64,000 bases of DNA, from contig JAFGSZ010000030.1 of NCBI GenBank assembly GCA_016934395.1, positions 4,089 to 68,088 of the forward strand, in the 5' to 3' direction. This document shows positions 1 to 8,074 of this stretch, piece after piece; positions within the stretch are counted from its first letter, which is position 1, and every line of letters begins with the position of its first letter. A program made the translations under genes and the position numbers. The notes under the pieces are model-generated. The model searched no databases, was not told the DNA's origin, and saw nothing but the letters and a program-made list of their open reading frames with translations. The stretch comes from Bacteroidales bacterium (GTDB taxonomy: Bacteria > Bacteroidota > Bacteroidia > Bacteroidales > UBA10428).

Positions 1-693
1 AAGTTCAAGGGTTGCTGTAAATTCGAGCATAATATTCTCGATATTGGCATTGAAAATACGAGAAACCGTATTTTCCCATGAACGTTCTACTTCTAATTCC
101 TCACCAGTAAGTTTTTGCTTTGTGAGTGCGTTTACATGATGTGCCTCATCGGAAATAAGAACAATTTTCTTGTCTGCAAAATCATCAAACGTTACGCTGT
201 TTTCACGGGGGGTATTTAACCGGGAATGTAAGCCCTGAATGGTTGTGAAATGAATATTAATATCATCATCGTTAACGCTTTCAAAATTATCAACTTCACG
301 AATATTAATAACCTGATTATTAATATTAATTTGTTCGGCAAATAAATATTTAAGTGAAGCTGGATTCAGAAAGTTCTCTTTTGTCTTGCGGATTATGGTA
401 TCGGTATTTACAAAGAAAATAAAATTACGATATCCCATTTTATACAATTCCACAATAGCCCCAGCCATAATTAAAGTTTTTCCGCTTCCGGTGGCCATAT
501 GAAATAATAGTTGAGTTGGTTTACGGCGGTTTTTATACTTGTTCAGGTAGAAACTTAAACGTGCAAAAGCTTCAACCTGATATGGACGGGCTTCGTAACG
601 GATATTTTGTTTAATAACATCGGGGATAACGAGTTCAATAATTTCGTTTTCTACAAGTACATCAAATTCTTTGTCTAAACGTTCTACTGCCAT
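1..693 (-). CDS. res: Type III restriction enzyme Res subunit (SF2 helicase), N-terminal part; the rest of the gene lies left of the window
   Basis: Absent from the ORF track because it is open at the window edge. My reverse translation from the ATG at 693 gives MAVERLDKEFDVLVENEIIELVIPDVIKQNIRYEARPYQVEAFARLSFYLNKYKNRRKPTQLLFHMATGSGKT (Walker A). Near 137-157 it gives ISDEAHH (DEAH box). There is a 1-nt gap to the upstream gene. Confidence 0.8.
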   Translation of the reverse strand, partial: MAVERLDKEFDVLVENEIIELVIPDVIKQNIRYEARPYQVEAFARLSFYLNKYKNRRKPTQLLFHMATGSGKTLIMAGAIVELYKMGYRNFIFFVNTDTIIRKTKENFLNPASLKYLFAEQININNQVINIREVDNFESVNDDDINIHFTTIQGLHSRLNTPRENSVTFDDFADKKIVLISDEAHHVNALTKQKLTGEELEVERSWENTVSRIFNANIENIMLEFTATLEL

Positions 694-694
694 G

Positions 695-1315
695 TTAATT
701 TATAAAGTTTTCAGATAGATGATAATACGCAGTTTTATTTGTTGGATTTTCAGATTTTGGATTATAAAGTATCTTAATATCATCACTATATACTGAAATC
801 AATCCGATATTATGTTCTTTAAAAAGGTTTACATCTACATTCCTAACAAATTCATTTGAAATTGCCAGAAAGCTTTTATGCGAAAAACATTTGTATCTCA
901 ATGCCTGATAGAAACCATCTTTCCAGTTTTTAAGTTTTGCTTCAACGGAAATTACTTTTTTCACTAATGGCTTATAGGTTTTTTCAATAACTAGATAGTT
1001 TTCTTCCTCTTTCAAATAACCTGCCTTATGTAATTTAGATAACAGTTTATTTAAAGTTTTTTTATCAAGGTTATTCTCACTTATCATGTTTGCCGGAGAA
1101 ATCCTTTTACCTTTTATGTTTATATAATTTAACAGATAGAACATCTCGTTAAAATTATTGATTGTAATATCTGGTGGATAATTATTTAAAATAGCACATG
1201 TTAAATCGCAGATGCCATTACCTGAATTGAATTCACGTTTTATTTTAAGGTCTTCGTATAATTGAGAAAAAGAATACTCAATTATAGGAAGCATATCTTT
1301 TTCAAGTTTAAACAT
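695..1315 (-). CDS. Hypothetical 206-aa protein: wHTH-like segment plus a PD-(D/E)xK-like ExK motif
   Basis: Track ORF. It overlaps the kinase gene by 8 nt and ends 1 nt before the res start. LNKLLSKLHKAGYLKEEENYLVI looks like a winged-helix recognition segment. GICDL ... ISVEAKLKNWKDGFYQALRY resembles a D...ExK nuclease core. Confidence 0.6.
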   Translation of the reverse strand: MFKLEKDMLPIIEYSFSQLYEDLKIKREFNSGNGICDLTCAILNNYPPDITINNFNEMFYLLNYINIKGKRISPANMISENNLDKKTLNKLLSKLHKAGYLKEEENYLVIEKTYKPLVKKVISVEAKLKNWKDGFYQALRYKCFSHKSFLAISNEFVRNVDVNLFKEHNIGLISVYSDDIKILYNPKSENPTNKTAYYHLSENFIN

Positions 1316-3356
1316 GACTTGTTTTATTTATTTGGTTAAAAACATTTTGCCAACGTTCAAGATGTTTATAATTATCGGGTTTAAAAACGCCGGGAATTCT
1401 TTTATAATTATTAATTGCTATCTCAATTCTTCTAAGAAAGTAATTTACTCTATCACTTTCATTTGTACTAATTATTTTTTCAACCTCACGATTAATCAAT
1501 TCCAGAAAGTGAAGTTTTGTATTATGGGAAGAAATTAAATCTGGAATGGGTTTGTCTTTACAATAAGTGCATTTGCATTGTCCTAATACTTCTATAATCT
1601 GTTGCAAACGAATGGGGTCTTTCTTTGTAATAGCTATTGTTCCCAATAATTCCGGGAAATAATACCTTTCATACATTTTAAATTGTTCAGTGACTTCTTT
1701 ATATAAATCCTCATAAAAACTCTCGAATCTTGCAGCCCCAGAAGTAAATCCTGTAATACCTGCACATAATAGACCCAAACCCAAAGTATCAAGCCTTCCT
1801 GCAATCACAGGTTTTTGAGTATATTTTTGTAAATCTACTAATGTTTTAATGTAGTGATATATTACAGGTTCAGTAGAGCTTTTATTTATTCCATCAGCAT
1901 AGATAATATATCCTTCACAGTTCATTGCCGCATAAGTATCGAGTAAATCTTTTTGGCTTTGCAAATCTGTTAATGTATTAGCATTAATACAGATTCCAGC
2001 ATAGAGAGGTTTTGAACATAGTGACTCCGTATTATTTCTATACTCAATAGATTCTTTGAGTAATTTAATATCTAAATCAAACCATTCAGCAACTGGGTTG
2101 CGTTTTGAAGTAGGGACAACATTAGTATTATGAGAATAATGATAAGGCGATGTTAGTATATCTGCCTGGAGGTTATATTGTTCATCTAAAACAAGTTTAA
2201 CATATTGCTTTTGGTCGTTATAAGAAGATAAGTAGGAGGGATTAATAACCCTGTAATCAGCAGGACAATAGGGCAATTTTAATAAACCTTTTACATCTGT
2301 ATATGTATCATAAGCTAACCGGATAGTTGAAGGGTCAAACATTAGAGTAATGTTTTCATTATCCTGTACTAATTGTAATAAACCTTTTTGCCTATATTGG
2401 TGGTTTATTGGGAAATTAACAAAAAGTTTATTCTCTGGATTATTTAGAATGAAATCTTCCAATACTGCTTTGTCATCATAAGTACGGACTATGAACCGCT
2501 TAGATAAATCAATTGTAACTTTGGAAATAGATTGACCATTACTTTTAATTGCATAAATTAAGTCATTAATACTTTGAAAACGTTTATAAGACTCTTTTTC
2601 AAGAAGTTTTAATATGATATTTTCATGTGTGTTGGAAATGTTTATATTCCACTTTCGTGGTGGAGTTGGATGCTCATTTTTTATTTTATCAATAAATTCA
2701 GGGACAATTGTTGCGTTATATGGGAAACGACCAGTAAGTAATTCATAAAAAATAAAACCTAATGTATATAAATCGCTGCGAAAATCAATGTGCTTACTAT
2801 CGGTAATTTGTTCAGGAGACATATAAGCAAATGTTCCTAAAATATTACCAGTGCTGGTGATACTAGTGTAATCAATTAGTTTTGACAAACCATAATCTAA
2901 TATTTTTATATCACCATTAGGTTTAACTTTAATGTTTTCAGGTTTTAAATCGCGGTGAATTATATTTGAATCATGAAGGCATTTAACCCCTTCAAGAATG
3001 TTAAGAAATAACTTTTCCTTATCGGAAATACTATTTTTTCTAAGACATTCCCTAAGGGTATCACCCTCAATAAAATCCATTACCAGAAAAACTTGTTGTA
3101 CATTTAAAAGGTCATCCATGAAATGTTCAACATAATCGACAAGAAATGGATGCTTAACATTTTGCATTACATCAATTTCTCTAGTAATACGGTTATCATT
3201 AGATTTTTTAAATTCGGCTAAAACATAGGCTTCACGAAAAACTTTAATGGCAAACGGTTTTGAATTTTTAAACACTTTATAAACAGAACCGAATCCACCT
3301 TCACCAATGAATTCGATAAATTTATATCCGTTAATAGTTTGGCCGATAAGTTCCAT
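1308..3356 (-). CDS. Hanks-type Ser/Thr protein kinase fused to a ~400-aa TGT/DpdA-like (CxCxxC...H) C-terminal domain
   Basis: Kinase motifs: G-loop IGEGGFGSVYKV, AIK (K38), HRDLKPEN (D136), DYG (D154), SPE. The C-terminus has C594-K-C596-T-Y-C599 (nt 1560-1577) followed by H611/H616. The start lies 6 nt after the mod stop. Confidence 0.85.
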   Translation of the reverse strand: MELIGQTINGYKFIEFIGEGGFGSVYKVFKNSKPFAIKVFREAYVLAEFKKSNDNRITREIDVMQNVKHPFLVDYVEHFMDDLLNVQQVFLVMDFIEGDTLRECLRKNSISDKEKLFLNILEGVKCLHDSNIIHRDLKPENIKVKPNGDIKILDYGLSKLIDYTSITSTGNILGTFAYMSPEQITDSKHIDFRSDLYTLGFIFYELLTGRFPYNATIVPEFIDKIKNEHPTPPRKWNINISNTHENIILKLLEKESYKRFQSINDLIYAIKSNGQSISKVTIDLSKRFIVRTYDDKAVLEDFILNNPENKLFVNFPINHQYRQKGLLQLVQDNENITLMFDPSTIRLAYDTYTDVKGLLKLPYCPADYRVINPSYLSSYNDQKQYVKLVLDEQYNLQADILTSPYHYSHNTNVVPTSKRNPVAEWFDLDIKLLKESIEYRNNTESLCSKPLYAGICINANTLTDLQSQKDLLDTYAAMNCEGYIIYADGINKSSTEPVIYHYIKTLVDLQKYTQKPVIAGRLDTLGLGLLCAGITGFTSGAARFESFYEDLYKEVTEQFKMYERYYFPELLGTIAITKKDPIRLQQIIEVLGQCKCTYCKDKPIPDLISSHNTKLHFLELINREVEKIISTNESDRVNYFLRRIEIAINNYKRIPGVFKPDNYKHLERWQNVFNQINKTSHV

Positions 3357-3362
3357 TTTATA

Positions 3363-5303
3363 TTAAAATTTGTTTAAATAAAAAGCCTTGTTCAGATATT
3401 TATCCTCCTTAGAAATTCCAAAAGTTTCATCCTCAATCTCAGAATAATTTACATATAGTTGGTTTTTGTCCAGTGTTTCAAGCAAGAATTTCTTTTGGTC
3501 GTCCGTGGAAAGTGTTTTGAAGGCTTCAATTCGTTCATCAAAAGTTTGTTTATCGAATTGATAACTTAAAAATGCCTTATCTTTCATTAACTGCCATATT
3601 GGAATTAATTTTTCTTTGTTGTCAGCTACCAGAATTTGGTCAACAAAAATTTGGTTGTATTTTGCCAGTTCGCAATAAATGAATGAGCCTCCACCTTGCC
3701 AGTTAACTTCCTTGTAATACCCACTTTCAGCACCCTTAATAGCATTAAAAATTCTTGAAACAGGAATATCTTCTATATAGTCCATTTGTTCAATACCAAT
3801 GAAGAATCTATCCAAAGAAAGTGAGACAGCAGCTGTAGTTCCACTTCCTGCAAAAAAATCTAATACAATATCATGAGGTTGTGTAGAAATCTGTATAATG
3901 TCACGAATTAAATAGGGCGATTTCGGATAACTAAATACTTTTTTGCCAAACTCATTCTTTAATTCATTTGTTCCAGTTTGTCCTGTATAATATGGCTTAT
4001 TCCAAATTGTTTTAGCTTTTTCACCTTGATAATCACTTTCTCGCTCTTTTGTGTACAATTCGATTCCATTTTTTGTTTTTTTGATTTCAATATATTTCTC
4101 AAGTTTTTCCATTAATGTAGTTGGACCCCAACGCCAACACCTTTCAGTACCTTCCTCGTCAATGGGTAATAATTCGATATCAAAAGGAGAAGTTCTTTCT
4201 AAGAAAATTTTACTTTTTTGTTCATTATAGTAAATAGGATAAAAAAGACCTGGTCTATCAGATTTTAATGAATTACTTCCGCTTCTTCTGAAACCTCTAA
4301 GTTTGTAATTACCCCATTTATCAGAGAATTTAAATTGATTCATCTTTTCATCAGATAAACCTAAGGTATTTATACTTGTACAAGTAATGTCCTTTGCATA
4401 GAAAAGCATATTTTCATGAGCTGTTGGGAAAAATTGGTCGTCTTGACGACCACCGGGATTATGCACTACTGAAATAACTCCCATTCTATTTTCTCTTCCA
4501 AAACATTCATCAAGCAAAACACCTAAATAAAACAATTCAAAATGGTCAATTGCAACAACTAAGATTCCATCTCTTTTTAATAAAGATTTGGCAATCTCAA
4601 TTCTATTTTTCATAAATGATAGCCATGCTGAATGATTGAATGTATTGTTATAGCTAAATGTGTTTGCTGCACCACTTGTATTGTAAGGTGGGTCTATATA
4701 TATTAATTTTACTATTCCAGAATACCTCTTTTTAAGTGAAGCTAAAGCTAATAAATTGTTGCCTTTGATTATTAAATTGTCATTATTTGAAATTTCAGTT
4801 ACTTCATGCTCTCCATTTAAATCATATTTCTTCCAATTTGTTAACACCTTGGGGTCAAGTAACCTGTCAATTTCATCAGGAGCGAGGGTCTCATTCCAAA
4901 AAATTTCATTTCTTTTTTGGTCTTCTTTGGTTTGTCCACCTTCTAAAACACAATCTTTGTGTGGCCATGATAGAACAACATCGTTTTTTGAAATTATATA
5001 ATTATCGGTTGTCCCATCGTTAATGGTTAATCCGATTTTGTTTTTAAATGCTGTGTAACTGTCGGGCAGAAATGATTTATTGTTTACAAAACGTTGGAAT
5101 TTAATTTTATCGAATACCAATACACCCTCTACATCTGTAAAGAAGTGCCGTTTCAAGGAATCATTTTTTAATAAATGCTTTATAAGTTTTGGGTCAACCT
5201 GTAAAGCCATCTCCACTATGCGGTTTTTATTGAGTTGACCGTCAATAACTAATGAACCTTCATGATTTAATATATCTATCAGGTCGTTTTGTAAGTTTTG
5301 CAT
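3363..5303 (-). CDS. mod: Type III R-M Mod subunit (beta-class N6-adenine/N4-cytosine DNA methyltransferase)
   Basis: Motif IV IYIDPPYNT precedes motif I DFFAGSGTTAAV, the beta-class order typical of Mod proteins. 646 aa. It heads an operon that ends with res. Confidence 0.9.
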   Translation of the reverse strand: MQNLQNDLIDILNHEGSLVIDGQLNKNRIVEMALQVDPKLIKHLLKNDSLKRHFFTDVEGVLVFDKIKFQRFVNNKSFLPDSYTAFKNKIGLTINDGTTDNYIISKNDVVLSWPHKDCVLEGGQTKEDQKRNEIFWNETLAPDEIDRLLDPKVLTNWKKYDLNGEHEVTEISNNDNLIIKGNNLLALASLKKRYSGIVKLIYIDPPYNTSGAANTFSYNNTFNHSAWLSFMKNRIEIAKSLLKRDGILVVAIDHFELFYLGVLLDECFGRENRMGVISVVHNPGGRQDDQFFPTAHENMLFYAKDITCTSINTLGLSDEKMNQFKFSDKWGNYKLRGFRRSGSNSLKSDRPGLFYPIYYNEQKSKIFLERTSPFDIELLPIDEEGTERCWRWGPTTLMEKLEKYIEIKKTKNGIELYTKERESDYQGEKAKTIWNKPYYTGQTGTNELKNEFGKKVFSYPKSPYLIRDIIQISTQPHDIVLDFFAGSGTTAAVSLSLDRFFIGIEQMDYIEDIPVSRIFNAIKGAESGYYKEVNWQGGGSFIYCELAKYNQIFVDQILVADNKEKLIPIWQLMKDKAFLSYQFDKQTFDERIEAFKTLSTDDQKKFLLETLDKNQLYVNYSEIEDETFGISKEDKYLNKAFYLNKF

Positions 5304-5599
5304 ATTATTAGTTCAATAAAAATTATTTTACAAATTAACATTTTTAGGAACAATTATCAGTTAAATGATCTAAAATCCTTGTATCGGAATATAAACAAAA
5401 CTTGCAAGACAGAAAATAAAAACTATTGCTATTAGGGTGGGCTATATAACATTTTTTCTCAAACTAAAGCAAAATAAAAAATCTCTTATTTCATGTTTAT
5501 TTTATTATTCTTATTCTTATTTTTAAAAACCACTTAATGTCTAGCTACCTAATTTATATTTATAGAATTAATAATTTCAATTTTTTTATATAATAGATT

Positions 5600-6040
5600 T
5601 TATTCTTTTTTATAAAATTCATCTCCAATCAATTCATCAGCATCAAATAAAACATCTTTAGCTTTTACAAATTTCCATAATTGATTCTTTAATGCCATTT
5701 GTAATTGTCCTTTACTATTTAAATCGGCAAATTCAAAAATTACAAATGTTCCAATTTCTTTGTAACTATGGATTTTTGCATTTTTATAGCTACGAACACT
5801 ACGTATTAGATCTTCGTTTATTTTTAAATTTTTAATTTCACCGATAAATTTAGCATTTAAACCATCTGTCTCTAGACTTTTCCAAATTGTTTGATCACCT
5901 GCATGTCTTTCATGTAATACTAATTCTTGCTCAATATTATTTACAGGATCATAGAATGTAGCCCTCCGTGAAAAATATTCGAATTTATTCTTGAAGATAT
6001 TCCCAATATCTTTAACAATTAAATAATGTTTATTTTCCAT
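5600..6040 (-). CDS. Hypothetical protein, 146 aa, no recognisable motif
   Basis: Track ORF in the AT-rich island, flanked by long non-coding spacers (5304-5599, 6041-6466). Confidence 0.5.
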   Translation of the reverse strand: MENKHYLIVKDIGNIFKNKFEYFSRRATFYDPVNNIEQELVLHERHAGDQTIWKSLETDGLNAKFIGEIKNLKINEDLIRSVRSYKNAKIHSYKEIGTFVIFEFADLNSKGQLQMALKNQLWKFVKAKDVLFDADELIGDEFYKKE

Positions 6041-6466
6041 AATAAGATAATATAATTTTTAATTGATAATTGTTATAGGTTCTAGATTCATTAATGTTGT
6101 TTAATTAGTAATAAATAAATTTAACATTTTATAACCCCTAAAACTCTATATTCAAAAATTTGTCTATTTGTTTGTTTTGTTCAAGTTTTCTAAAAAGAAT
6201 CTAATTTATTTATTTTATAGCAATTTATGTAATTTAATGTGTTCATAATTAAATGTGCTATAATGTTGAATTGTCTCATGCAAGTAAATTTATAATCTTT
6301 TATAGTCCTTTTAACTATAATGTAATTTTATTTTATCCTTGTTGCATGTTCTACCAGAATGTAAACGTGATAAGGCTAAGTTAAGATTTCTAATTGTTTT
6401 TTGAGTTGTGCAGATGGTATAATCACTCATTAAAAAAACACACGGATTAACAAAATGTGGCGAGCT

Positions 6467-7069
6467 CTATTTCCACAAAGGTTTCTTTAATGGTGTTTCA
6501 TTTAGCTTTTTTCCGAGACTATCTTTTAAATTATAGATATCTTCTTCATCTGTTGAAATAAAATAGAAATCAGAATTTTCAGAACATAATTTTTTATATT
6601 CTTTTTCTTTTTCGGCTCTCTTTTTTGAATAGTCTTCATCATCCAAACCAAAATGTTCTAAAATAATGGTGCTTCCCCTATGATCATCAATTACAAAATC
6701 AGGTCTTATTTCTTTTTCTAACGTCATTAAAGGTTCATATTGAAAATTCAATCCATTTGCCGTAAGAAAATAACAAATTAATAATTCACTTTTTGATTTA
6801 ACCTTTTGGGAATTAAAATAATATTTACCCTCAAATTTTTGTTTAAACTCGGTTTCCTTCTTCTTTTTGACATAATCAATACTTTTTAAACTCTTTTTGT
6901 GTTCCATTTTCTCTTTCCAATGTTCTTTGCAAAGCGTATGACCTTCGGGAACTTCAATGTCGCAAATTTCACATTTTGGTTTCTGTTTTTCTTTAACGGT
7001 ACAATCCCAACACAGGGGAAACCAGGGTTTTTTTGTTTTTCCACATTCGGGACATATTGTTTTATCCAT
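6467..7069 (-). CDS. Double zinc-ribbon protein with a C-terminal Vsr/DUF559-like (PD-(D/E)xK) endonuclease domain
   Basis: The N-terminus has CPECG..CWDC and CEIC..CKEH. The C-terminus has SKSELLICYFLTANGLNFQYEP...IRPDFVI...IILEHFG, the helix / (R)PDF / (I)E-x-x-G pattern of Vsr/DUF559-type nucleases. Confidence 0.55.
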   Translation of the reverse strand: MDKTICPECGKTKKPWFPLCWDCTVKEKQKPKCEICDIEVPEGHTLCKEHWKEKMEHKKSLKSIDYVKKKKETEFKQKFEGKYYFNSQKVKSKSELLICYFLTANGLNFQYEPLMTLEKEIRPDFVIDDHRGSTIILEHFGLDDEDYSKKRAEKEKEYKKLCSENSDFYFISTDEEDIYNLKDSLGKKLNETPLKKPLWK

Positions 7070-7136
7070 ATTCTTTAATTATAAAAAGTTTTTCTTTCGG
7101 CTGTTTTATCAGATATACCGCAATGTGTACAGTGTT

Positions 7137-7790
7137 TTATTCTTGTATTTTTATTAAGTCTATAAAATCATCTTCTAAATATCTTATCCGCAATGACTTT
7201 GGATGATGTGTCCTAAAGGTCAATCGTGGTAATTTTGAATGCTTTAATCTACATAATTGTCTATTGTTCCAATTGTCAATATTTTCAAAAGATATTTCGT
7301 TAAAAATTGATTTTATTCTTTGGTCAAAAGAAGGCCCTGTAAAAAAGATACAGATGTTAGGTTTTAAAATTTCAATCTCATTGATTAATAAAGAATCAAG
7401 TTTTGAAATTTCTAATTCATAGTCACCATAAGGTCTATTAGCGTCCAAATCAAACTTATTAATGTTTGTCCATACACACGAATACTCCACATTTCCTAAG
7501 GCTAATTCAATCTTTCGAGTAATATTCCAAAATGGAGATGAATAGTAATCAATCCCTAAATTGAAATCTTGATAAGTTTTCATTTGATTATCTATATCAT
7601 CTGCATGATAAGTCCAGCCATTTGTCTGTTGTCCAATAATCATTAAACGTTTTGGTTGATTTAGATATAAATCATTTGGAGACATAAGAATCGGTCCTGC
7701 CAAGTCATCATCTGGAAATCTCTCAACAATCTGTTTGAAATCATTAATCCTTGATTGGTAAATCTGTTTTAATTGCTCATTTATTGTCAT
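7137..7790 (-). CDS. Hypothetical protein with uracil-DNA-glycosylase-superfamily-like motifs
   Basis: LMIIGQQTNGW resembles UDG motif A (G-E/Q-x-P-G region). A C-terminal THHPKSL resembles motif B (HPS). The size (217 aa) fits. Assignment rests on motifs only. Confidence 0.45.
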   Translation of the reverse strand: MTINEQLKQIYQSRINDFKQIVERFPDDDLAGPILMSPNDLYLNQPKRLMIIGQQTNGWTYHADDIDNQMKTYQDFNLGIDYYSSPFWNITRKIELALGNVEYSCVWTNINKFDLDANRPYGDYELEISKLDSLLINEIEILKPNICIFFTGPSFDQRIKSIFNEISFENIDNWNNRQLCRLKHSKLPRLTFRTHHPKSLRIRYLEDDFIDLIKIQE

Positions 7791-8074
7791 AGTATCGTTT
7801 CTTTAACATGGTACACAACTAATCTATAACTTTACATTATTTTTAATAACATATACTTATAAATGTATTATGATCTCCTTTTATATGTACATGCAAAATA
7901 TTTATTATTTAATAATGTTACAATTACATAGAACAATAGTAATATCTTTTCCTTAACCCCAAATAAATGTAAATATTATCACAATATAAACCATAAATTT
8001 ATTGGAATTTTCACCTCCATGCAAATTACATTTAACTATTATAAAATATAATCCACTGGTTTTACCAATAAACT

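Follow-up and report, generated by a model that had tools for sequence, protein, structure and literature searches.

The C-terminal domain of a protein kinase encoded within a restriction-modification (R-M) operon of a Bacteroidales bacterium (GTDB: UBA10428) is a divergent, unnamed branch of the tRNA-guanine transglycosylase (TGT)/DpdA superfamily, and is neither a canonical TGT nor a canonical DpdA enzyme. The gene lies in a stretch of 64,000 nucleotides (nt), hereafter the window, from assembly GCA_016934395.1 (contig JAFGSZ010000030.1, positions 4,089 to 68,088 of the forward strand). As a new branch of its superfamily, the domain would form, together with a 206-amino-acid (aa) partner protein, the core of a candidate defence cassette, here in a version fused to a kinase; we give this overall reading about as much chance of being right as of being wrong. 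A TGT/DpdA-like character had been proposed earlier from the letters of the sequence (the original prediction). It was upheld for the fold and the zinc site by Foldseek and profile searches and was not supported for the active site, which is not retained as such (Tyr or Phe at position 405), or by the family models, none of which matched. The features of the fusion gene and of its partner are as follows (positions in the window):

1308–3356, minus strand: open reading frame (ORF) of the kinase–TGT-like fusion gene, 682 aa
2505–3356, minus strand: Hanks-type Ser/Thr protein kinase domain, residues 1–284 (Pfam Pkinase)
1311–2504, minus strand: TGT-superfamily-like barrel of the (beta/alpha)8 type that carries a zinc-knuckle insertion and, at its C-terminus, a helical bundle, residues 285–682
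2334–2336, minus strand: D341 of D-P-x-T, closing the third strand of the model, candidate catalytic acid
1722–1724, minus strand: E545 in the motif R-F-E-S-F, in the loop just after strand 8, candidate nucleophile
1560–1577, minus strand: C594-x-C596-x2-C599 in the insertion after strand 8, predicted zinc ligands
1509–1511, minus strand: H616 in the helix following the Cys triad, predicted fourth zinc ligand
695–1315, minus strand: 206-aa partner with a putative PD-(D/E)xK-type core and an inserted winged helix

Residue 285 of the fusion protein begins at nt 2504, and its final sense codon runs to nt 1311. On the basis of modelling, residues 285–682 very probably adopt a TGT-like fold. The AlphaFold2 model of this region, built from an 11-sequence alignment, had a mean predicted local distance difference test (pLDDT) score of 82.5 and a predicted template modelling score (pTM) of 0.85. 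Eight strand-helix units come first in it; a beta hairpin and a short helix then lead to the Cys triad, after which a long helix bears H616 and two more helices follow. The triosephosphate isomerase (TIM) barrel that had been expected from short hydrophobic segments was present as an eight-stranded beta/alpha barrel: the segments MFDPS, ILTSPYH, GICINA, YIIYADG, and VIAGRLD overlapped model strands (domain residues 52–57, 116–118, 167–174, 198–204, and 233–238, respectively), and the sixth segment, GFTSGAAR, began at the end of the strand at domain residues 252–255.

Comparison of the model with the PDB by Foldseek, as the original prediction had suggested, returned TGTs at all of ranks 1–10 (E 1.3e-6 to 1.4e-4, template modelling (TM) scores 0.44–0.55). 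The top match was human QTRT1 (7nq4_A; E 1.3e-6, TM 0.55), with several Zymomonas TGT entries next, and DpdA (7ui4) was found at rank 17 (E 7e-4, TM 0.37). The modelled domain is a TIM barrel whose nearest structural relatives are TGTs. Unrelated barrels, namely aldolases and KDO8P synthase, were also listed (TM 0.26–0.36, E ~1e-4 to 1e-3). Their presence, and the position of some homologous loci among housekeeping genes, would fit an ordinary signalling kinase whose sensor is a metabolic TIM barrel, with no link to nucleic acids or defence and with an accidental location among R-M genes. We regard this as very improbable, since these barrels scored TM 0.26–0.36 against 0.44–0.55 for the ten top TGT matches, and the zinc motif aligns with that of TGT. 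The strict linkage to a winged-helix/PD-(D/E)xK-like partner, the patchy spread across phyla, and the finding of copies on a plasmid, within a ribosomal operon, and repeatedly inside R-M operons likewise argue against it.

Sequence comparison with the PDB gave chance matches only (CD3 delta, salutaridine reductase) when a single-sequence phmmer search or a profile of the 11 close homologues was used. A 53-sequence family profile that included stand-alone relatives placed Pyrococcus archaeosine TGT (ArcTGT; 1iq8) first of 177,635 PDB sequences (E 0.065), aligning YkCsCaaC...lHfl of the family with FPCSCPVC...LHNLW of ArcTGT. In hhalign comparisons with a TGT alignment, three runs were colinear between strand 4 and the zinc site. 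At low probability, the alignment extended over ~300 columns with hairpin on hairpin, and paired C594, C596, and C599 with C302, C304, and C307 of E. coli TGT, and H616 with H333. Adding 21 TGTs from viral contigs to the TGT profile raised the hhalign probability only from 10.7% to 14.5%, and hhalign against the DpdA of phage CAjan, which has no CxCxxC motif, found nothing. No TGT model of Pfam or NCBIfam matched the window protein or any of the 53 family members, even at E <= 10, and scans of Pfam, NCBIfam, and PADLOC gave no family model for the barrel domain. A search of a viral structure library returned uncharacterised proteins and weak phage TGT-like matches only.

The closest solved folds are therefore those of TGTs (bacterial TGT, QTRT1, ArcTGT), with which the domain shares the order of barrel strands, hairpin, CxCx2C, and His on the next helix, as well as an acidic residue (E545) at the putative nucleophile position. 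It differs from them in its low identity (~12%), in matching no Pfam or NCBIfam TGT model, and in leaving no strands for TGTs' beta-sheet lid at the N-terminus, since all eight modelled strands are used by the barrel. Further differences are its fusion to a kinase or pairing with PIN or DUF3800 proteins, its obligate winged-helix, nuclease-like partner, the lack of a link to queuosine genes, and a Tyr or Phe in place of the base-recognition Asp.

The fusion protein contained the motif string GQCKCTYCKDKPIPDLISSHNTKLHFLELINREVEKI, with the Cys codons at nt 1575–1577, 1569–1571, and 1560–1562, H611 at nt 1524–1526, and H616 at nt 1509–1511; the C-x-C-x2-C...H signature had thus been assigned to the correct residues and codons. 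C594, C596, C599, and H616 were unchanged in all 113 full-length homologues (49–80% identity). A profile search of 1.84 billion cluster representatives recovered 300 relatives at E <= 1e-3; of 87 distant full-length matches, 73–81 kept the three Cys and 83 kept H616. Because the motif is kept across 113 close and 87 distant homologues, it is not a chance match. Either H611 or H616 had been named as the zinc-binding His. H611 was replaced by Q, P, or K in nearly all of the 113 homologues and was ruled out by conservation, so that the invariant H616 is the predicted fourth ligand. The motif conforms to the structural zinc site CXCX2CXnH in both placement and invariance, with 16 residues between the last Cys and H616; metal binding itself is a prediction from sequence. 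The Cys3-His site would tie the insertion that follows strand 8 to the barrel's last helix. One stand-alone homologue (P0187; locus L067, 194–2312) lacked CxCxxC and was followed by genes for an Xre-family antitoxin and a RES toxin; no partner was visible on this short contig.

In DpdA the zinc site is CXCX2CX22H, with the Cys provided by an insertion after strand 8 and the His by the terminal barrel helix (PMC10164549). The domain described here resembles DpdA (7ui4; PMC10164549) in its TIM barrel with a post-strand-8 insertion pinned by CXCX2CXnH and a His on the following helix, in the absence of an N-terminal lid (here judged by strand count), and in a defence context beside DNA-acting proteins. 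DpdA was nevertheless a weaker structural match than the tRNA TGTs, its Cys-His spacing is 22 rather than 16 residues, and its invariant D95, D130, and D256 are not reproduced as such in this family.

Three Asp are invariant in TGTs and DpdA, serving as general acid/base, base reader, and nucleophile (PMC10164549). Strand 3 is followed by the first of them (D102 in Z. mobilis, D89 in E. coli, and D95 in DpdA), strand 4 by the second, and strand 8 by the last (D280, D264, and D256, respectively). The base reader (Z. mobilis D156, E. coli D143, DpdA D130) had no Asp counterpart in the family: the position of E. coli D143 aligned to Y405, which was Y or F in 113/113 homologues and was followed by H or F, and this mapping was identical in every alignment covering the position. 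In three low-probability hhalign runs, the nucleophile D264 of E. coli TGT was paired with E545. Of the 113 close homologues, 102 have E at residue 545, 10 have D, and 1 has N; the residue lies in a loop modelled with pLDDT < 50. D341 was D in all 113 close homologues and in 77 of the 87 distant ones (N in 7). By strand count in the model it would sit at the end of strand 3, the position of the general acid/base Asp of TGTs; in two hhalign registers, E. coli D89 faces either a gap near L-P-Y-C-P or Y349. Judged by these alignments, the family may keep two acidic pocket residues and may have lost the Asp that reads guanine or deazaguanine. The zinc ligands, D341, P342, T344, Q393, P404, and E545 were conserved in fused and stand-alone forms alike. 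We place actual glycosidic-bond chemistry by the barrel somewhere between unlikely and slightly less likely than not.

Two conserved loops of the barrel domain were among its least confidently modelled parts. The segment AARFESFYEDLYKE (residues 541–559; window 1680–1736, minus strand) directly follows strand 8 and carries E545; model confidence is lowest there (pLDDT ~31), and the segment probably serves as a mobile loop at the active site or for the substrate. The loop after strand 4 (residues 408–423; window 2088–2135, minus strand; pLDDT < 50) shows the pattern H-N-T..P-T..R-N-P, in which N410 and N420 were invariant and T411 and T416 were T or S in 113/113. None of the 54 stand-alone homologues has a residue at position 416 or 420, and the loop may act, specifically in the kinase fusion, as a phospho-acceptor or in regulation.

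TGT-family proteins are already represented in defence, in Dpd (PMC10164549), in type IV cyclic-oligonucleotide-based antiphage signalling systems (CBASS) as Cap10 (bioRxiv 10.1101/2025.04.06.647259), and in a system related to bacteriophage exclusion (BREX; PMC12839542). Cap10 handles a deazaguanylated protein and has lost the zinc subdomain, which in TGTs supports nucleic-acid binding, while keeping the base-reading Asp and the Asp nucleophile (bioRxiv 10.1101/2025.04.06.647259). Like the protein described here, it is a TGT-fold protein found alongside a signalling enzyme, in an anti-phage system that for the present family is a candidate one; neither a CD-NTase nor a QueC-like Cap9 was found near the present cassette. 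The family shows the reverse pattern, with the zinc site kept and the base-reading Asp lost, which argues for a nucleic-acid substrate and a different base.

An alternative is that the domain is a DpdA-like DNA transglycosylase, placing 7-deazaguanine or another base in host DNA to give the surrounding R-M system an additional self-mark, under regulation by the kinase. The TGT/DpdA-like fold and zinc site, the tight operon coupling to mod and res here and in close relatives, and a partner predicted from its sequence and model to be DNA-binding and nuclease-like would agree with this. We consider it decidedly unlikely. The guanine/deazaguanine-edge reader of TGT, DpdA, and Cap10 is not conserved (PMC10164549), DpdA was a poorer structural match than the tRNA TGTs, and the cassette occurs in lineages of the Candidate Phyla Radiation (CPR) and for the most part lacks accompanying R-M genes. 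The genes of a Dpd system, in which DpdA acts with DpdB, DpdC, and access to the preQ0 pathway, were also not found in the window or the loci examined. tblastn of the window with E. coli TGT and QueA and with DpdA, FolE, QueD, QueC, and QueE of phage CAjan gave E > 0.2 throughout, in line with the original statement that no preQ0 or queuosine genes are present. No QueC, QueD, QueE, FolE, TGT, or DpdA homologues occurred in 51 related loci, though a host may encode the pathway elsewhere in its genome. DpdB and DpdC were not named in the Pfam listings of neighbouring genes, neither having been searched for directly. The lack of 7-deazaguanine pathway genes in the window and in the 51 loci makes Dpd-like insertion of preQ0 unlikely.

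The N-terminal part of the fusion protein is an intact kinase. Pfam Pkinase matched residues 11–261 only (1.1e-50) and nothing beyond, as anticipated by the earlier statement that residues ~285–682 have no kinase features. The motifs of Hanks-type kinases were all present, comprising the Gly-rich loop (G20/F22/G23), the VAIK Lys (K38), HRD (H134-R135-D136) with N141, the DFG Asp (D154-(Y/F)-G156), and an APE-type motif (P181-E182); these residues and E60 were invariant in the 113 homologues, and S180 of the S-P-E motif was S in 112 of them. PADLOC models of PD-T4-6 (1e-62) and mad6 (2e-56) matched the kinase, all ending at about residue 300 with none over the barrel, and NCBIfam MAD6 (1.9e-33) scored 116 against a cut-off of 460 and PglW 54 against 990. 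The kinase domain thus resembles those of defence-associated Hanks kinases (PD-T4-6, Stk2, MAD6 of MADS, PglW of BREX), whose models cover none of the C-terminal domain of this fusion, and the protein is not a full-length PD-T4-6, MAD6, or PglW. PD-T4-6 as the identity of the gene was rejected, since its models match the kinase domain only and also hit PknB-type kinases (PMC11514479).

The partner was modelled by AlphaFold2 with a pLDDT of 96 as a helix, two strands, a winged helix (~residues 55–110), a strand, a helix, and a strand. E28, D37, E125-x-K127, and Q137 were invariant in 34 homologues. Topology and invariant residues fit the PD-(D/E)xK pattern, with 3dnx, the best Foldseek match (E 8e-3), as sole structural support; we infer from the model a nuclease-like core of this type. 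An inserted winged helix is supported by the many weak matches to winged-helix regulators that followed 3dnx. No family model of Pfam, NCBIfam, or PADLOC covered the partner, and no Pfam nuclease model matched it. It was less conserved than the fusion protein (28–56% vs. 38–71% identity), its winged helix being the faster-evolving component.

Linkage between the two proteins was nearly complete. A genome scan with one genome per species gave 49 loci, in 46 of which tblastn found a partner homologue directly downstream; a profile search added one more (L038), bringing the count to 47/49, and the remaining two were contig ends. In every other context examined with room on the contig, the partner was adjacent to the TGT-like gene. 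Groups represented among the 49 loci include Bacteroidota, Calditrichota, Ignavibacteriota, Chlorobiota, Planctomycetota, CPR lineages, Bacillota, Proteobacteria, and Acidobacteriota. A mobilizable plasmid of Priestia megaterium carries a kinase-fused copy with a convergent partner gene.

The kinase was not a constant component. About 54 of the 87 distant representatives were stand-alone proteins of 340–470 aa without a kinase. In locus L059 a TGT-like gene, a PIN_3 gene, and the partner were found beside an integrase and an N6_N4 methylase/ResIII pair, and in L068 (6001–8302; also in L069) the same trio lay between the genes for ribosomal proteins S10 and L3. In L060 the partner and the TGT-like gene were accompanied by a DUF3800 gene, which matches the PADLOC candidate PDC-M04A, beside RelA_SpoT and Abi_C genes. 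The constant core is the TGT-like domain plus its partner, and the third module swaps between a fused kinase, a PIN_3 RNase gene, and a DUF3800 gene. The S10–L3 ribosomal operon is an unusual landing site for a mobile cassette.

The interchange of modules bears on whether the barrel is an enzyme at all. It could be a non-catalytic sensor or scaffold, a pseudoenzyme like QTRT2 or a remodelled domain like Cap10, in which the kinase or the PIN or DUF3800 protein is switched on or off by whatever ligand the barrel binds, be it nucleic acid, a nucleobase-bearing molecule, or a protein. We hold this to be possible, if doubtful. Kinase, PIN, and DUF3800 look like interchangeable effectors of a constant sensing core, an aromatic residue occupies the base-recognition Asp position, the nucleophile position has Glu rather than Asp and is missing in ~30% of distant members, and Cap10 is a precedent for a TGT fold remodelled for protein binding (bioRxiv 10.1101/2025.04.06.647259). 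Unlike fast-evolving defence sensors, however, the barrel domain was about as conserved as the kinase (median identity 0.54 vs. 0.57), with many invariant polar residues at strand ends, and D341 was as conserved as the zinc ligands; fast evolution sits in the winged helix of the partner instead. Conservation on a par with the kinase speaks for an enzyme or a precise binder rather than for a sensor that evolves fast.

In the window, the fusion gene and its partner are embedded in a type III R-M operon, the other two genes of which are:

3363–5303, minus strand: Mod, type III R-M methyltransferase, 646 aa, first gene of the operon (Pfam TypeIII_RM_meth 9.7e-26, N6_N4_Mtase 7.8e-38; PADLOC MTase_III 1.3e-165)
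1–693, minus strand: Res, type III restriction subunit, N-terminal 231 aa, gene running off the window (translation with the helicase motifs GSGKT and DEAH)

Mod is separated by 6 nt from the kinase–TGT-like gene, which overlaps the partner ORF by 8 nt, and 1 nt separates the latter from Res. Full-length Res (863 aa, with ResIII and HI_1054 domains) was found on another contig that carries an identical kinase protein (L070); the operon is thus of type III, with the Mod domains and the N-terminus of Res seen in the window and the whole of Res on L070. The order mod, kinase–TGT-like gene, partner, res was shared by the window, L070, and relatives at 76% and 80% identity. Six of the 49 loci had the order hsdM, kinase–TGT-like gene, partner, a 161-aa gene, hsdS, hsdR, i.e., a type I operon, with HsdM and HsdR 88–96% identical (HsdR 66–68% in L040) and HsdS divergent.

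The type III genes of the window were present in none of the 49 loci, and most genomes carry the cassette without an adjacent R-M system. The original placing of the fusion inside an R-M operon therefore holds here, for the two closest relatives, and for the type I lineage, and not as a general rule, the conserved unit being an autonomous cassette. Dependence on R-M as a general property was rejected on the same grounds. The cassette is small, horizontally mobile, and autonomous, and its R-M setting is secondary.

Beside the R-M-embedded copies, further genes were noted. A conserved 161-aa gene follows the partner ahead of hsdS (L008, 9807–10292, and four other loci). In the 80%-identical relative (L064, 3183–4951) an AAA_15/AAA_21 ATPase gene and a DUF4276 gene lie between partner and res, and the mod–res gap appears to be a hotspot for extra cassettes.

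Positions 1–8000 of the window form a low-GC island (27–31% GC vs. 34–45% further on) that contains the R-M operon and three small unannotated ORFs, and looks like a horizontally acquired defence island. A 200-aa ORF (6467–7069, minus strand) has CxxC pairs at its N-terminus, and its C-terminal region matches the PADLOC candidates PDC-S68/PDC-S69 and HEAT_CxxC_PD-DEXK (E 1.4e-14 to 1e-4); it is probably another nuclease-type defence gene. For a 146-aa ORF (5600–6040, minus strand) and a 217-aa ORF (7137–7790, minus strand) no Pfam or PADLOC family was found, and the former recurs upstream of mod on the contig that carries the identical kinase protein. On that contig (L070, 13489–14770), outside the window, a protein with TIR and HATPase_c_2 domains is encoded ~5.5 kb beyond res and is likely a defence protein.

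An abortive-infection gene inside an R-M operon is the arrangement known from PrrC/EcoprrI. Here, too, a non-R-M cassette lies amid R-M genes (mod/res in this operon; hsdM/hsdS in six loci). The proteins are different, most copies of this cassette have no R-M neighbours, and the likeness is one of gene order alone. It raises the alternative of a tRNA-directed abortive-infection toxin analogous to PrrC, in which the barrel docks onto an anticodon loop and the tRNA is passed to an effector such as the PIN RNase, or is depurinated, with the R-M proteins silencing the module until a phage anti-restriction factor appears. Such a toxin would agree with tRNA-bound TGTs (7nq4, 8omr) as the best structural matches, with PIN_3 RNase as an alternative third module, and with embedding in type I and type III operons. 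The obligate partner, however, resembles a DNA-type winged-helix nuclease, and most cassettes lack an adjacent R-M system; we judge both the toxin and its silencing by R-M proteins unlikely.

On the reading as the core of a defence cassette, the whole would be an anti-phage or abortive-infection type module that acts on nucleic acid. DNA or RNA would be bound by the variable winged helix of the partner together with the retained zinc subdomain of the TGT-like domain, and the barrel pocket would take up a flipped-out nucleotide that is neither guanine nor 7-deazaguanine. The glycosidic bond could then be broken via Glu545 and Asp341, and the event at the nucleic acid would be coupled to the effector module, here through protein phosphorylation. 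In its most specific form, this makes the barrel an active TGT-fold enzyme that, guided by the partner and gated by or signalling through the kinase, excises or exchanges a base other than guanine or 7-deazaguanine in phage or host DNA or RNA using these two residues; taken as a whole, this form is rather doubtful.

Several points weigh against the defence-cassette reading. Sequence homology to TGT is weak (hhalign probability 6–15%, and the E of 0.065 for the profile match in the PDB), and the residue mapping is of low confidence, the register of the first three strands being ambiguous. E545 is not universal (61 of the 87 distant representatives have E or D there), and the Cys triad is missing from some stand-alone homologues. 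The assignment of the partner as a nuclease comes from motifs, topology, and one weak structural match. The case for a defence role is drawn only from context and from the kinds of modules involved; many genomes hold the cassette among housekeeping genes rather than in a defence island, the kinase-fused family was absent from the viral contigs scanned, and no PADLOC model covers the barrel domain.

No kinase–TGT fusion, TGT-like defence kinase, or partner of this kind was described in the literature searched, most subscription-journal papers being outside the search. What is new here is the branch of the TGT superfamily, its architecture, and the obligate partner that goes with it, neither protein being modelled in curated libraries dated 2023–2026. 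The branch is widespread (300 clusters at 50% identity in many phyla, including CPR and Bacillota, and on a plasmid), strictly paired with a nuclease-like predicted DNA binder, and wired to three output modules. Cultured carriers are Marivirga aurantiaca (S37H4), Extibacter muris (DSM 28560), and Priestia megaterium, the last on its plasmid.

To our knowledge, base exchange in intact tRNA and DNA is catalysed by no enzymes other than those of the TGT fold. Each earlier new branch of TGTs revealed new chemistry: DpdA the insertion of deazaguanine into DNA, and Cap10 a nucleobase-protein conjugate. The operons described here are a clean example of candidate defence cassettes built into R-M operons. 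If the domain is a sensor, it would show how a base-flipping fold came to serve a kinase as its immune receptor. Were it an enzyme, the family would carry out an undescribed reaction of nucleic-acid modification or damage, and should the active-enzyme reading with Glu545 and Asp341 be true, it would represent both new nucleic-acid chemistry and a new defence system that has been built repeatedly into type I and type III R-M operons.

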